Counted from the first letter of the stretch, positions 4,178 to 58,577 are shown. The stretch: DNA of 64,000 nt from Urbifossiella limnaea (GCF_007747215.1 NZ_CP036273.1:1160322-1224321); one strand, 5' to 3'. The notes: generated by a model not told the origin, from the letters alone. Made by a program: numbers and translations.

Positions 4178-4223
4178 GGCCGCTTGCGGCGGGGTGTGCC
4201 TACGGATTGAGGCCTGACGCGCG

Positions 4224-4288
4224 TTAGGCCGGGGCGCAAGCCCCGTCGGGAGTTTGAACCCACGACGGGGCTTGCGCCCCGGCCTAAC
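4224..4288. repeat. palindromic hairpin repeat, family 2, copy A
   Basis: TTAGGCCGGGGCGCAAGCCCCGTCGGG...CCCGACGGGGCTTGCGCCCCGGCCTAA. Arms contain GGGGC-GCAA-GCCCC (a GNRA-type tetraloop). Second copy at 49692-49766. Confidence 0.65.
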
Positions 4289-16245: not shown

Positions 16246-16295
16246 TGTATTCTTCCGCCGCTCGCGGCGTAGCGCGGCGTACCCCCGCCACGCCG
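16246..16295. repeat. palindromic repeat, family 3 (CGCCGCTCGCGGCGTAGCG arms), copy A
   Basis: CCGCTCGCGGCGTAGCG...CGCCACGCCGCGAGCGG in the divergent pyrD/ABC promoter region. Related copies at 21079-21124 and 58500-58547 share the flanking AA(G/A)CCCCGAGCC. Confidence 0.5.
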
Positions 16296-16403
16296 CGAGC
16301 GGCGAAGCCCCGAGCCTCGCCGCCCCCGTCGCGCGCCAATATGTTCGCTGGGACCGCGAATCCCTCTCCGTTACGTTCCCCATCCCGACCCCCGGAGGCC
16401 GCT

Positions 16404-18787: not shown

Positions 18788-18850
18788 GGCGAGCGGCCGG
18801 CGTGAGCCGGCTGTTCCCACGCGCATCTGATGCGCGTGGGAACAGCCGGC

Positions 18851-18867
<17 letters not shown>
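18788..18867. repeat. 80-bp perfect palindrome (39-bp arms, 3-nt loop)
   Basis: GGCGAGCGGCCGGCGTGAGCCGGCTGTTCCCACGCGCATC-TGA-GATGCGCGTGGGAACAGCCGGCTCACGCCGGCCGCTCGCC. Begins right after the permease stop and spans the pxpB stop codon. Confidence 0.7.
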
Positions 18868-19531
<664 letters not shown>

Positions 19532-19639
19532 GGGGCGGCTCCGGGCTTCGCCGCTCGCGGCGGAGCAAACCCGTAGTTTATCGCGCCCCGCGGCGTAGAA
19601 TGGCGGTTCGTCCTCCGCACCCCCCGACCCCCCCACCGC

Positions 19640-21070: not shown

Positions 21071-21078
21071 TCGGGTTC

Positions 21079-21124
21079 CGCCGCTTGCGGCTTAGCGCTG
21101 CCCCGCGCTAAGCCGCAAGCGGCG
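21079..21124. repeat. palindromic repeat, family 3, copy B (convergent terminator position)
   Basis: CCGCTTGCGGCTTAGCGC-TGCCCC-GCGCTAAGCCGCAAGCGG between the rimO stop and the ctpA stop. Confidence 0.55.
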
Positions 21125-21142
21125 AAACCCCGAGCCATAACC

Positions 21143-22528
21143 CTACCGCGGCGCCCGCAGCACCTCGATCGCCTTCGCCAGCACCCGGTCCTCGAACGGC
21201 TTGCTCTCGTCCACCAGCGCCCGGCCGTCGGCGCCCTTCGGCATCGGCGCCGCCGCCGGGTTCGGCCCGACCACGTCCGGCCGACCTGCCACGTAGTCGA
21301 GCCGCCGCATCTCGACCGCGTACCGCAGCCGCTCCTCCTCCGCCGTCGGTACCTCCATCCTCGGGCTCGGCCGCACGCCCCAGTCGTCGGCCTCCTTCGC
21401 GTCCGGGTAGCGGTGGATGTTCTTGCCGTTCGGCCGCCAGTACGTCTCGGTCGTCAGCTTCACCGCCGCCGGCGGGTCGTTGTGCGGCAGCCGCAGCAGC
21501 TTCTGCACGCTCCCCTTGCCGTAGGTCCGCTCGCCCACCACCACCGCCCGGCCGTGGTCCTGCAGCGCCGCCGCCACGATCTCGCTGGCGCTGGCGCTGT
21601 TACGGTTCACCAGCACGGCGATCGGCCGCGGGTTGTCCGGCGTGGGCTGGAACAGCGTGCCCTCCTTCTTGCCGCCGAACACCCGCTCGCTGCCGCGGCG
21701 GTCCTTCGTGGACACGATCCGCACGTCCGGCAGGAAGGCGTCGGCCACGTCGATGGCCTGGTTCAGCAGGCCGCCGGGGTTGTCGCGCAGGTCGAGGATG
21801 AGGCCGCGGGCGCCGGCGGCCTCGATCTCGGTCACGGCCGCCCGCAACTCCTTCGTCGTCAGCTCGCTGAACGTGGCGATGCGGATCACGGCGATCTTCG
21901 CCTGCGGGTCGACGAACCACTCCCACTTCAGCGGGTCGGTCTTGCTCCGGGCCACGCCCATCACCGGGTGCATCTCGATCCGGCCGCGCGTCAGCGTGAC
22001 CGGGAACTCGCCCTTGCCGTCGCGCCGCATCGTCAGCGTCACGTTCGAGTTGATCGGCCCGGTGATCCGCTTCTTGGCCTGTTCGATCGACCAGCCCTCG
22101 GTGCTGTCGTTCTCCACCTTCACGATGATGTCCCCGGCCACGACGCCGGCGTTGTACGCGGGCGTGCCGGGCATCGGGTGATCGACCTTCAGCAGCTTCG
22201 ACTTGGCGTCGATGCCGAGCGAGATGCCGACGCCGCCGAAGCTCCCTTCGGTGGTGGACTCGAACTCGGCCAGCCGGGCGGCGTTGAAGTACTCGGAGTG
22301 CGGGTCGAGCTGGTGGAGGCCGCCGTCGATCATGTCCTCGACGAGCTTCTGGCGGTCGGCGTCGGACAGCTCGCGGACGTAACTGGCGTCCACCTCGGCG
22401 AGCACGTCGACGACCTGGCGGACGAGCTTGTAGTCCTTGTCGGGCGCCGGGGCGCTGTACCCGATGGCCAGGCCGATGGCCACGAACGCGGGCACGGCCA
22501 GGAGCCAGACGAGATTCCGCAGCGACAT
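21143..22528 (-). CDS. ctpA: carboxyl-terminal processing protease (S41A, PDZ-containing)
   Basis: N-terminal TM, PDZ (GSFGGVGISLG...GDIIVKV), catalytic LDLRDNPGG and TYGKGSVQ motifs. Confidence 0.85.
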   Translation of the reverse strand: MSLRNLVWLLAVPAFVAIGLAIGYSAPAPDKDYKLVRQVVDVLAEVDASYVRELSDADRQKLVEDMIDGGLHQLDPHSEYFNAARLAEFESTTEGSFGGVGISLGIDAKSKLLKVDHPMPGTPAYNAGVVAGDIIVKVENDSTEGWSIEQAKKRITGPINSNVTLTMRRDGKGEFPVTLTRGRIEMHPVMGVARSKTDPLKWEWFVDPQAKIAVIRIATFSELTTKELRAAVTEIEAAGARGLILDLRDNPGGLLNQAIDVADAFLPDVRIVSTKDRRGSERVFGGKKEGTLFQPTPDNPRPIAVLVNRNSASASEIVAAALQDHGRAVVVGERTYGKGSVQKLLRLPHNDPPAAVKLTTETYWRPNGKNIHRYPDAKEADDWGVRPSPRMEVPTAEEERLRYAVEMRRLDYVAGRPDVVGPNPAAAPMPKGADGRALVDESKPFEDRVLAKAIEVLRAPR

Positions 22529-22557
22529 GTTGTTGCGCCCGAGGGGTACTGGTCTTG

Positions 22558-22643
22558 GTGACGGGGTGACGGGGTGACGGGGTGACGGGGTGAGAAGAAT
22601 ACCCCGTCGTCACCCTTCACCCCTCACCCCGTCACCCCGTCAT
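22558..22643. repeat. tandem octamer (GTGACGGG)x4 array forming a hairpin with an inverted partial array
   Basis: GGGGTGACGGGGTGACGGGGTGACGGGG (four G4 tracts), loop TGAGAAGAAT, then CCCCGTCACCCCGTCA inverted copies. Lies 30 bp upstream of the ctpA start and about 190 bp upstream of the TIGR03000-like gene. Confidence 0.7.
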
Positions 22644-22828
22644 GCGACGCCGGTGAGCTGAACGTATCGATTATAGCCGTGCGCCCGGTCGGAAGGGAAC
22701 GGGCGCGCCGCCCTGGGTACTTGAGGACGTTTTCACTCAAGCCCGATTTGTCCGCCCACCCGGAGCCGTTTATCCTCGTTGTACAGGGGCCGCAGATTCC
22801 CCAGATTCCCCCGCACCGGGTGGCCGCG

Positions 22829-24022
22829 ATGTACAGCCTGGTCCTGATGACCGCCATGGCCGGGGGCGCCGACGCCCCGCAGTTCAACGGCTACTTCCGC
22901 GACCTGTTCAACGGCGGCAGCTGCAACGGGTGCGGCGGCGGGGCCGCCCGCTACAGCTGCTACGGCGGCGGGTGCTGCGGCGGCACCGAGTGCTGCGGCG
23001 GCGGGCACGCCATCTTCGGCGTCCGCGACCGCGTCCGCAGCTGGTGGAACGCCAACGGCTGTTGCGGCGGCACGACCGCCCTGGCCGGCTGCACCGGGTG
23101 CTGCGGCGGCACGACCGCCCTGGCCGGCTGCACCGGGTGCTGCGGCGGCACCGCGGCGTACAGCTGCTTCGGCGGGCCGGCCGTGTCGTACACGCCGGTC
23201 CTCAACGGCGGCCTGTCGTGTTACGGCGGCCCGGTGCCGTCCGCGCCGCCGCCGGTGTTCGGGCCGGCCCAGCCGTACGCGGCCCCGCCGGCGACCATCC
23301 CCTACGCCGACCCGCAGTCGGCCCCGGCCCCGGACCGCACCGGCTTCCGCCCGGCGGTCGCGTTCGGCCCGCCGACGGCGACGGTGTCCAACGGCAGCCG
23401 GGCGGCCATCGTGGTCCGCCTCCCGGCCGACGCCCGCCTGTACGCCGACGGCGTGCCGCTGCGGCTGACCGGCGCCGAGCGCCGCTTCACGACCCCCGAA
23501 CTGCCCGGCGGCATGGAGTTCACCTACCGCATGACCGCGGAGTACGACCGCAACGGCGAGGTGGTGTCGGTCACGAAGCGGGTGCCGGTGCGGGCCGGGG
23601 CGACGGAAACGGTCGAGTTCGCCGACCTGACCGCGGCCCGCCCGACGACCGGCGCCCCCGCCACGCCGGCGGCCAACCCGGCGGTGGCGGCCCCGGCCGT
23701 GCCGGTGTCGAACCCCGGTCCGACGGCCCCGGTTGCCCCGACGGCCCCGGTTGCCCCGACTGCTCCGACCGGCGGCGACGCCCGGGCCACGATCACGGTG
23801 AAGCTGCCGCCGGGCGCCGCGCTGTTCGTGGACAACAACCGCAACCCCTCGACCGAGTCGACGCGGCGGTTCACGACGCCGCCGCTGCCGGCGGGCCGGG
23901 AGTTCGCCTACCTGTTGCGGGTGGAGGTGACGCGGAACGGCCAGCCGGAGCAGCTGTCGCAGAAGGTGGCGTTCCGGGCCGGCGAACACACGGAAGTGGA
24001 CTTCAGCTCGCTGGGCCGGTGA
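22829..24022 (+). CDS. Cys/Gly-rich protein with two TIGR03000-like (Planctomycete-specific) domains
   Basis: N-terminal CGG-rich block with a 39-bp tandem duplication (CCGGTTALAGCTG x2). Two about 75-aa repeats (VVRLPADARLYADG...RRFTTPELPGG.EF.Y and ITVKLPPGAALFVDN...RRFTTPPLPAGREFAY). The alternative start at 22679 is not excluded. Confidence 0.6.
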   Translation: MYSLVLMTAMAGGADAPQFNGYFRDLFNGGSCNGCGGGAARYSCYGGGCCGGTECCGGGHAIFGVRDRVRSWWNANGCCGGTTALAGCTGCCGGTTALAGCTGCCGGTAAYSCFGGPAVSYTPVLNGGLSCYGGPVPSAPPPVFGPAQPYAAPPATIPYADPQSAPAPDRTGFRPAVAFGPPTATVSNGSRAAIVVRLPADARLYADGVPLRLTGAERRFTTPELPGGMEFTYRMTAEYDRNGEVVSVTKRVPVRAGATETVEFADLTAARPTTGAPATPAANPAVAAPAVPVSNPGPTAPVAPTAPVAPTAPTGGDARATITVKLPPGAALFVDNNRNPSTESTRRFTTPPLPAGREFAYLLRVEVTRNGQPEQLSQKVAFRAGEHTEVDFSSLGR

Positions 24023-26063: not shown

Positions 26064-26266
26064 CGGGTTTTCAGGCCGAAGGCCTGACAGCCCTCAGCCC
26101 AGGGCAACGCCCTGGGTACGCGGCGCGAACCACCCCGCAGGCTGAAGGCCTGCGAGCCGGCTCGCAGGCCTTCAGCCTGCACGGCATTTCGATCCCCGTA
26201 CCCAGGGCGGCGGTGCTTCGCACCTTGCCCTGGGCTGAGGGCTGTCAGGCCTTCGGCCTGAAAACC
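26064..26266. repeat. nested palindromic repeat element, family 1, copy B (about 203 bp)
   Basis: Same 41-bp terminal inverted arms as 1008-1170 (perfect here). Inner IR CGCCCTGGGTAC/GTACCCAGGGCG. Central 44-bp palindrome GCAGGCTGAAGGCCTGCGAGCCGGCTCGCAGGCCTTCAGCCTGC. Confidence 0.7.
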
Positions 26267-49635: not shown

Positions 49636-49691
49636 GGTCCTGCGCCGCTCCCTTCTTTGCCCGCGATCACGCTGGTTCGCCGGGGGGTATC

Positions 49692-49766
49692 GTCCTGTTA
49701 GGCCGGGGCGCAAGCCCCGTCGGAGATCAGACACCCGACGGGGCTTGCGCCCCGGCCTAACAGGAC
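49692..49766. repeat. palindromic hairpin repeat, family 2, copy B
   Basis: GTCCTGTTAGGCCGGGGCGCAAGCCCCGTCGG-loop-CCGACGGGGCTTGCGCCCCGGCCTAACAGGAC. Same arms as 4224-4288 with a different loop. Confidence 0.65.
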
Positions 49767-49794
49767 GCTGCACCGCACCAGATACGACACGAAT

Positions 49795-58491: not shown

Positions 58492-58499
58492 GGTGACCT

Positions 58500-58547
58500 C
58501 GCCGCTCGCGGCGTAGCGGCGTCGACGCCGCTACGCCGCGAGCGGCG
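58500..58547. repeat. perfect palindrome, family 3, copy C (terminator-like position after the tricorn gene)
   Basis: CGCCGCTCGCGGCGTAGCGGCG-TCGA-CGCCGCTACGCCGCGAGCGGCG. 22-bp arms, 9 bp after the stop codon. Confidence 0.6.
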
Positions 58548-58577
58548 AATCGTTCCCCCTCCAACCCCCTCTCCCCC

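Follow-up and report, generated by a model that had tools for sequence, protein, structure and literature searches.

The described repeats closest to the element analyzed here are the G-rich heptamers of Rehm et al. 2015 (PMC4692102), with the units GGGAATC in Xanthomonas and GGGGA(C/T)T in Nostoc/Anabaena. They are located close to the 5' neighbouring open reading frame (ORF) and occupy the non-coding strand upstream of ORFs, and both of their strands are transcribed. Each Xanthomonas genome carries 70-75 convergent pairs, which can form stem-loops, and in vitro the repeats fold into very stable G-quadruplexes (G4s) and i-motifs, with a preference for four units. Their length and sequence vary among close species, and the type (single or paired) is often kept. 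The repeats showed no link to gene function or class and no association with insertion sequence (IS) elements or transposons; a regulatory role could not be shown, and a location between divergent ORFs is under-represented. The present analysis concerns a tandem octamer array and its inverted partner in a 64,000-nucleotide stretch of DNA from Urbifossiella limnaea (NZ_CP036273.1:1160322-1224321; the whole stretch is termed the window, and its GC content is 73%), where the pair probably occupies the transcribed 5' leader of a gene for an S41 C-terminal processing peptidase (ctpA-like, here ctpA).

Like the repeats of Rehm et al., the window array consists of tandem intergenic units with G-tracts, is G4-competent at about four copies and forms part of a convergent pair. 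In terms of the features by which that class was defined, the unit is arranged head to tail, is 6-9 nt long and has a G-tract of at least 3; at least four G-tracts are present; the G-array is 5' and the C-array 3'; and only 28 nt separate the array, on the antisense strand, from the ATG of ctpA (22528), which agrees with the proximity to ORFs in the class. Unlike those repeats, the unit is the octamer GGGGTGAC, the host is a planctomycete (Gemmataceae), the array is located between divergent ORFs with a single locus in 64 kb, and the orthologous ctpA site also hosts hairpins of non-G-rich units. We favour, with moderate confidence, the interpretation that the element is a convergent G-rich octamer pair of the long-simple-sequence-repeat class, which forms a dispensable, fast-evolving stem-loop in the 5' untranslated region (UTR) of the S41 protease gene and is not a G4 switch. 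As a single locus it is ordinary, an octamer and a planctomycete example added to an already described class.

The short tandemly repeated repetitive (STRR) heptamers of heterocystous cyanobacteria are defined by specific heptamers; membership is both taxonomic and sequence-specific, and the window element does not qualify. More generally, long simple sequence repeats with units of 5-11 nt, heptamers being the commonest, occur in some free-living bacteria according to Mrazek et al. 2007, as summarized in PMC4679880. Going by that summary, the likeness to the window array extends to short, non-triplet, tandem and intergenic units, to large genomes and to an origin attributed to slippage. The TAACTGA repeats of MacGregor 2015 (PMC4679880) occur just upstream of start codons in Beggiatoaceae, Cyanobacteria and Bacteroidetes, and a post-transcriptional role was proposed for them. 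The window repeat is similarly placed directly upstream of a start codon and shows a patchy cross-phylum spread, but the TAACTGA repeats have another unit, are not G-rich and are almost never inverted (one indirect repeat in 170 sets). In Haemophilus influenzae, an (ATCTTTC)n hairpin in the hmw1 5'-UTR is cleaved by RNase III, with proven phase variation and RNase III dependence (PMC12721329). As in hmw1, a repeat of the 7-8 nt type would form one arm of a long 5'-UTR hairpin, here computed and in a leader whose transcription is predicted; in hmw1, however, the other arm is a non-repeat G-rich sequence, at least 11 copies are present and the gene class is different. Some cyanobacteria, like the planctomycete Isosphaera, have an excess of G-patterns (PMC4060949). 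Literature searches with octamer strings returned only primer and oligonucleotide noise, and those on Gemmata/Gemmataceae palindromes or hairpins and on G-quadruplexes in Planctomycetes returned nothing relevant to planctomycete repeat hairpins.

An earlier note on this DNA, made from the sequence alone, had described a tandem octamer array, and Tandem Repeats Finder (TRF) indeed reports 4.6 perfect copies (Table 1), the only perfect array with at least four octamer copies in the window. The + strand, the template for ctpA, carries the G-rich side of the array. A canonical G4 motif had also been proposed, and the G4Hunter check bore this out: GGGGTGACGGGGTGACGGGGTGACGGGG has the form G4N4G4N4G4N4G4 at 22563-22590, is the sole + strand G4 motif in the window with G-tracts of at least 4, and scores 1.86 across the array with a 25-nt maximum of 2.08. 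The inverted partner, placed by the note some 15 nt downstream, exists as a degenerate copy, in which the first C4 tract begins 8 nt beyond the array; the exact CCCCGTCACCCCGTCA is found only at 22627-22642, about 33 nt past the array end. Unit periods in the degenerate arm are 8, 8, 7, 7 and longer (86-90% matches with indels in TRF), and four inverted repeats (I1-I4) with arms of 17-23 nt are 94-100% complementary, those with arms of 20-23 nt reaching 96-100%.

In the sense of the ctpA mRNA, the degenerate copy is the G-rich 5' arm (UGACGGGGUGACGGGGUGAGGGGUGAAGGGUGACGACGGGG) and the array is the 3' arm, (CCCCGUCA)n, adjoining the start codon. The order is G-rich degenerate arm, loop, (CCCCGUCA)n, 28 nt and AUG, the measured distance being 28 nt against about 30 bp in the earlier note. 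The octamer locus is single copy in the window. The 17-mer GTGACGGGGTGACGGGG yielded 7 matches with up to three mismatches, versus 1.36 expected (none of 100 shuffles reached 7), and 5 of the 7 fall inside the element. A chance origin of the element was ruled out by these near-match counts together with the folding z-scores against shuffles.

The z-scores amount to -6.4 for + strand RNA, -5.2 for - strand RNA and -7.2 for DNA, and none of 200 shuffles folded equally well. As single-stranded DNA, the hairpin is computed at -39.5 kcal/mol. The minimum-free-energy fold of the whole leader (-76.8 kcal/mol) is identical with or without the G-quadruplex term of ViennaRNA, and the 37-bp stem remains in it even when the term is switched on; in the models, the alternative of hairpin or G4 that had been suggested is not an even choice. 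An isolated array is computed at -30.0 kcal/mol as G4 versus -9.5 kcal/mol otherwise, and G4 is preferred only when the partner arm is missing. In these calculations the hairpin is far more stable than the quadruplex when both arms share one transcript. An intrinsic (Rho-independent) terminator was considered and rejected: the scanner found none in 22300-23000, the stem-loop is followed by a T-run on neither strand and the flanking genes diverge. Searches against Rfam 15 at permissive E-values gave only generic miRNA-precursor hairpin matches, with at most 41 bits versus gathering thresholds of 60-168.

The position of the element relative to the ctpA promoter was analyzed by comparing the upstream regions of 37 orthologous ctpA loci. 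In 16 of these, every close relative included, the -10 box GGCTATAAT is identical, and 14 more distant loci carry a TAnAAT variant; the block GACCGGGCG(C/G)ACGGCTATAAT is virtually invariant among close relatives. The box is upstream of the element in all cases, at 30-230 nt from the ATG, and the variation in length lies wholly downstream of it. GGCTATAAT is probably the ctpA -10 element, with a leader of about 130-140 nt in which the hairpin would be transcribed. Since the conserved box is upstream of the element, both arms are expected in the ctpA mRNA, consistent with the location in the ctpA 5' leader given by the earlier note. A consensus promoter scan of 22300-23000 called no promoter; the ctpA box escaped the scanner because its -35 region is non-canonical. 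No in-frame start codon occurs farther upstream of the ctpA ATG, and the array is therefore non-coding. The segment from the hairpin base to the ATG has kept the 3' portion of the basal leader seen in relatives that lack the hairpin, and inspection of its sequence revealed no obvious Shine-Dalgarno motif.

The best CtpA homologue (95% identity) is encoded in the metagenome-assembled genome (MAG) STL-PLA24, whose locus, L121, has about 92% DNA identity to the window over 21 kb of synteny. In two related species, represented by L121 and L122 (84% protein identity), the hairpin has homologues of 34-37 bp. The L121 unit GTGAAGGG pairs with CCCTTCAC, and its change relative to the window unit GTGACGGG is matched in both arms. 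The variable unit position forms three A-U pairs in L121 and two C-G pairs in the window, and L122 has both kinds. RNAalifold found 4 of 46 predicted pairs altered on both sides, two of them within the hairpin stem. The arms thus change together, which shows that pairing is of consequence, whether under selection or for a mechanism of copying from arm to arm.

Six close relatives with 78-89% protein identity (L165, L161, L130, L162, L163 and L126) have hairpin-less leaders of 30-60 nt, and L124 has only a decayed hairpin remnant. Because the conserved ends of the short leaders can still be made out on either side of the window hairpin, the latter has the character of an insertion, about 87 nt long, in a basal leader of 58-60 nt. 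Judged from the sequences of these relatives, the hairpin is dispensable for the ctpA gene. At the same place in the leader, L129 and L131 bear (GTGTTTG)n/(CAAACAC)n hairpins and L128 bears a non-repetitive 30-bp palindrome; in the CtpA tree, these three are interleaved with the octamer-bearing lineages. In most 100-nt windows of the flanks, L122 and L131 show 92-99% identity, but from leader start to ATG the two have nothing in common. Leaders of more distant Gemmataceae carry hairpins of (CACAGAG)n, (GGGCAAG)n, (GTGTGAG)n or GCGGAT-based units. With such non-G-rich or palindromic hairpins in the leaders of relatives, the recurrent feature at the locus is the long hairpin, in many cases made of some 7-8 nt repeat, and not the G-quadruplex, contrary to the emphasis originally placed on the latter. 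The natural series at one leader (octamer, heptamer and palindromic hairpins, or none) argues in the same direction, and it indicates that these hairpins turn over much faster than the surrounding DNA. Taken as a whole, the earlier interpretation is partly supported.

Two details of individual leaders were recorded in addition. The octamer hairpin of L122 (3826-4000) measures about 165 nt versus about 100 nt for the (GTGTTTG)n hairpin of L131 (1375-1500), both loci being from metagenomic Gemmataceae. In L129, the (GTGTTTG)n outer arms enclose a remnant, CCCGTCACC, which suggests layered growth.

Template switching at quasi-palindromes is established in E. coli. Under the favoured interpretation, the octamer pair would owe its place in the transcribed 5' leader of the protease gene to insertion or to expansion there, and the hairpin would arise and be renewed by replication slippage within the arrays together with templated correction from arm to arm, as in quasi-palindromes. 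With transcription presumed to start upstream of the element, at the conserved -10 box, both arms would enter the ctpA mRNA; the G-rich arm would be transcribed first and the C-rich arm would then pair with it to give the computed 37-bp stem-loop. The hairpin would be non-essential for ctpA expression. Any effect on ctpA would be exerted by the long double-stranded 5'-UTR structure, by analogy as an RNase III substrate or as a modulator of mRNA stability or translation, and presumably not through a G4/i-motif switch or through phase variation of promoter spacing.

Several points weigh against this interpretation. The compensatory changes come from only three sequences and could reflect mechanical copying from arm to arm rather than selection on the RNA. 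Of about 32 distinct ctpA leaders examined, at least 12 have a long hairpin, and at least seven sequence types are represented; this recurrence may exceed the background, crudely estimated at roughly eight long hairpins per 64 kb, in which case the hairpin could be selected at the ctpA locus. The transcription start of ctpA is placed by a single mark, the conserved -10 box, with a non-canonical -35 region, and the RNase III or stability effect is drawn from analogy. Co-transcriptional folding, which is beyond thermodynamic models, could leave the G-rich arm locked in an RNA G4 before its partner is made.

One alternative is that the element is a G-quadruplex/i-motif switch, in which the hairpin would have a competitor in a DNA G4 on the + strand, or in an RNA G4 in the G-rich arm of the mRNA, and transcription or translation of ctpA would be tuned in this way. 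We regard such a switch as unlikely, despite the canonical motif with its G4Hunter scores, the preference of the isolated array for G4 by about 20 kcal/mol in ViennaRNA, the G-tracts retained in L121 and L122, and the stable G4s and i-motifs formed in vitro, with a four-unit preference, by related G-rich heptamers (PMC4692102). With the partner arm in cis, the hairpin is ahead by about 40 kcal/mol and G4 is missing from the minimum-free-energy fold, while orthologous leaders carry hairpins without G4 potential (GTGTTTG, CACAGAG, palindrome) or no hairpin at all. G4 potential is inherent in the repeat unit, so its conservation is uninformative. Absolute G4Hunter scores of at least 2.0 are, moreover, reached by ten regions of the window, and the repeats of Rehm et al. 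could not be shown to have a regulatory function (PMC4692102).

The distribution of the octamer was analyzed further by an exact search with 2.5 units, GGGGTGACGGGGTGACGGGG, in contigs representing one genome per species, which gave at least 120 loci. Among the matches listed, hosts of (GGGGTGAC)n include Cyanobacteria (some with genomes of 35-45% GC), Planctomycetota, Chloroflexota, Longimicrobiaceae, Acidobacteriota, Streptomyces and others; several loci per genome are frequent, and other 7-mer arrays are often nearby. The closest genome has at least two octamer loci (L117 and L121), and several genomes of other lineages have 5-10 sampled loci each. Two (GGGGTGAC)n arrays of MAG MFD02840.bin.2.207 (L009, 3192-3264, and L091, 2902-2974) have in common a 35-nt unique flank, AACCTACGGTTGATGCTCAGTGGGTTTCAAT, at 98.6% identity, and it follows that some arrays, at least, travel together with a dispersed element.

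An inverted partner within 200 nt was found for 19 (GGGGTGAC)n arrays among the matches listed, and the G-array was 5' of the C-array in all 19. The asymmetry is real, because the arrangement reads identically on both strands. The spacers of these pairs range from 6 to 158 nt and are unrelated. In a survey of (GGGGTGAC)n loci, arrays are nearer to the ORF on their 5' side (median 34 versus 94 nt; 27 versus 12 within 50 nt), as judged from crude ORF calls filtered by GC content at the third codon position; 38 arrays were called inside ORFs, mostly on a stop-free C-rich strand, and many such calls are probably spurious. A scan for array pairs of period 6-9 in about 1.1 Mb of loci found G>C in the left arm of 96 pairs and G<C in 26 (62 versus 26 after removal of GGGGTGAC-like units), a result that is noisy and only suggestive owing to contamination by GC-rich coding pseudo-palindromes of period 6. 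Stop codons (TGA in GGGGTGAC) were rejected as the cause of polarity, since the 5'-arm units GTGTTTG and CACAGAG have none. The strict rule that the G-rich arm comes first thus extends from the heptamers of Xanthomonas to a multi-phylum octamer, which opens the rule to direct test. The most interesting residue of the analysis is this polarity, along with the fact that near-identical genomes have had their hairpins replaced wholesale.

A broader proposal, to which we assign only a small chance, is that inverted arrays of lineage-specific 7-8 nt repeats form a distinct, self-renewing class of bacterial intergenic hairpins with a logic of its own, represented at ctpA by a selected leader element and not by junk. 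Such hairpins are replaced wholesale between genomes about 95% identical, at least three repeat alphabets are found at the same 60-nt ctpA leader, and the G- or purine-rich arm is always 5'. Polarity could then stem from selection for Rho-silent folding, in which the G-rich arm comes first and the C-rich, rut-like arm is never exposed, or alternatively from a generating mechanism by which both sides of a break acquire G-rich repeats at their 3' ends. The ctpA hairpin would in that event be an RNase III site or a Rho/G4-sensitive switch.

Repetitive extragenic palindromic (REP) elements have a defined sequence, which REP-associated tyrosine transposases (RAYTs) mobilise and which is dispersed in near-identical copies. 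The window element is likewise fast-turnover intergenic DNA that forms hairpins, and it might be a mobile miniature element (of the type of miniature inverted-repeat transposable elements, known as MITEs, of REP or of the REP doublets termed REPINs), i.e., a transposed palindrome with octamer arrays as terminal inverted repeats. The fixed polarity of the 19 pairs would be expected from a defined terminal inverted repeat; the octamer hairpin of L117, at another locus of the closest genome, aligns over 78 nt including the loop (83% identity); the element behaves as an insertion into the basal leader; and other palindromes of the window are dispersed families or insertions. Against mobility, all-against-all BLAST within three multi-locus genomes confined the similarity between loci to the arrays, with L009/L091 as the sole exception, in contrast to REP/REPIN copies, and no link to a transposase was seen. 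Unrelated spacers, the single copy in the window and the lack of a target-site duplication at the ctpA leader in comparison with the leaders of relatives point the same way, as does the absence of IS element or transposon association in the repeats of Rehm et al. (PMC4692102). We consider mobility improbable as an account of this element.

Doubtful to a slightly greater degree is a phase-variable or tunable repeat, in which slippage would alter the octamer copy number, the length or perfection of the hairpin and hence ctpA expression. The 100% identity of the array implies recent slippage or homogenisation, and slippage, suggested by the earlier note, is plausible, since both the unit and its copy number differ between species; a precedent is provided by hmw1, with its transcribed heptamer repeat, long 5'-UTR hairpin and RNase III dependence (PMC12721329). 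Near-identical pairs, however, do not differ in copy number (L122 and L123 have the same hairpin, and the leaders of L124/L125 and of L126/L127 are identical), although these pairs are perhaps not independent. A run of 4.6 copies is short for a high-rate switch, the ctpA-like product is a housekeeping-type periplasmic protease and not a surface antigen, and the repeat class lacks a link to contingency genes (PMC4692102). Placed between the conserved -10 box and the ATG, and so in neither a promoter spacer nor an ORF, the array lacks the classical geometry of phase variation.

Least probable is an array of octamers that serve a DNA- or RNA-binding regulator as operator- or iteron-like sites, an idea consistent with the regular 8-nt spacing near the start codon on the mRNA and with the hypothesis advanced for the TAACTGA repeats upstream of Beggiatoaceae start codons (PMC4679880), but opposed by an 8-bp period that is out of phase with the DNA helix, by the absence of the array from many orthologues and by units that change (C to A) or are wholly replaced in near-identical genomes, whereby binding would be lost unless the protein had co-evolved.

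Table 1. Features of the ctpA leader and the adjoining genes, with positions counted from the first letter of the window
Feature	Position	Strand	Basis or remark
Perfect tandem array (GGTGACGG)x4.6	22557..22593	+	TRF: period 8, 100% matches; direct-repeat family D1
Spacer/loop GAAGAATACCCCGT	22594..22607	.	Part-paired in an inner, imperfect stem (minimum-free-energy structures)
Degenerate inverted copy, C-rich on +	22608..22642	+	TRF rows 22608-22642 and 22610-22638; G4Hunter -1.72
Whole stem-loop, ctpA leader (computed)	22557..22643	-	87 nt, 37 base pairs, -68.2 kcal/mol (ViennaRNA)
28-nt stretch CCAAGACCAGUACCCCUCGGGCGCAACAAC, hairpin base to ATG	22529..22556	-	Sequence and comparison with the basal leaders of L161, L130 and L122
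Predicted ctpA -10 hexamer TATAAT, context GACCGGGCGCACGGCTATAATCG	22670..22675	-	Conservation among orthologues
S41 C-terminal processing peptidase gene, ctpA-like	21143..22528	-	TIGR00225, 279 bits (cut-off 218.6); element in its leader
Divergent TIGR03000-domain gene	22829..24022	+	NCBIfam TIGR03000, 164 bits (cut-off 43); context, outside the element

In terms of annotation, the ctpA-like ORF scores below the CtpA-specific NCBIfam cut-off (216 versus 625), and PF03572 and PDZ domains are present in homologues of the protein. The ctpA-like and TIGR03000 genes are divergent, with about 300 bp between them. The earlier note had assigned the element to an upstream region common to both genes; the divergent intergenic geometry is as described, but the promoter-like boxes of the TIGR03000 gene (-35 TTGTCC at 22748-22753, a 17-nt spacing and -10 TATCCT at 22771-22776), which are conserved in orthologues, lie beyond the hairpin and face away from it. 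On these two predicted promoters, the hairpin would therefore belong to ctpA only.

The leader of the TIGR03000 gene (22748-22828) is strongly conserved between species, in contrast to that of ctpA. A 9-nt direct repeat, CAGATTCCC, occurs twice at 22793-22811, right before the ATG of the gene, and could be a regulatory or ribosome-binding feature. Inside the gene, two in-frame tandem repeats were detected, one of 39 nt x2.5 at 23056-23151 (96% identity) in a Cys/Gly-rich segment (CCGGTTALAGCTG), and the other of 18 nt x2.3 at 23720-23760 in a Pro/Ala/Thr-rich stretch.

About eight other long intergenic hairpins are present in the window. In the 21-kb block syntenic with L121, the main unalignable stretches coincide with hairpins, and three further sites differ besides the ctpA leader. 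As far as these sequences indicate, hairpin turnover is a genome-wide habit rather than a speciality of ctpA. The first of the three sites, 26066-26266, closely follows an ORF resembling NADH dehydrogenase subunit H and is a nested palindrome whose outer arms are perfect over 42 nt and whose inner arms measure 51 nt; it is contained in a 254-nt stretch without an L121 counterpart, looks like a recent insertion, and has a partial copy of its outer arm at 1008. The second, 18788-18868, is a 40-bp perfect palindrome with a 1-nt loop that overlaps the stop codon of a pxpB-like gene; at the corresponding 3' end, L121 (13614-13716) has instead a (GCGGAAT)n inverted-array hairpin, which encodes the last residues of the protein. 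The third difference is the palindrome at 16256-16304.

The same pxpB/CT_C_D-like gene (minus strand, about 19570..18851) contains a perfect (GGAGACA)x4.6 array at 19289-19320, encoding the linker PVSCLLSPVS. Its STL-PLA24 orthologue (87% identical; L121 13182-13216) has at this position a CCCGCAC-like heptamer array encoding VPAPRTPQSAPRT. The linker arrays differ by genome, and lineage-specific non-triplet repeats thus also build a coding linker.

Two dispersed palindrome families were also recognized, one with the core GTTAGGCCGGGGCGCAAGCCCCGTCGG and the other with the core CGCCGCTCGCGGCGTAGCG, the latter being found in L121, L128 and L161 as well. Dispersed palindromes of the window are located at 4223-4288 and 49684-49774, and at 16256-16304 and 58499-58548. 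Where the rimO/miaB-like gene and ctpA converge, a 26-bp hairpin (21073-21130) separates them that L121, L128 and L129 have conserved. Together with the two palindrome families, this hairpin is probably a REP-like or terminator-like element.

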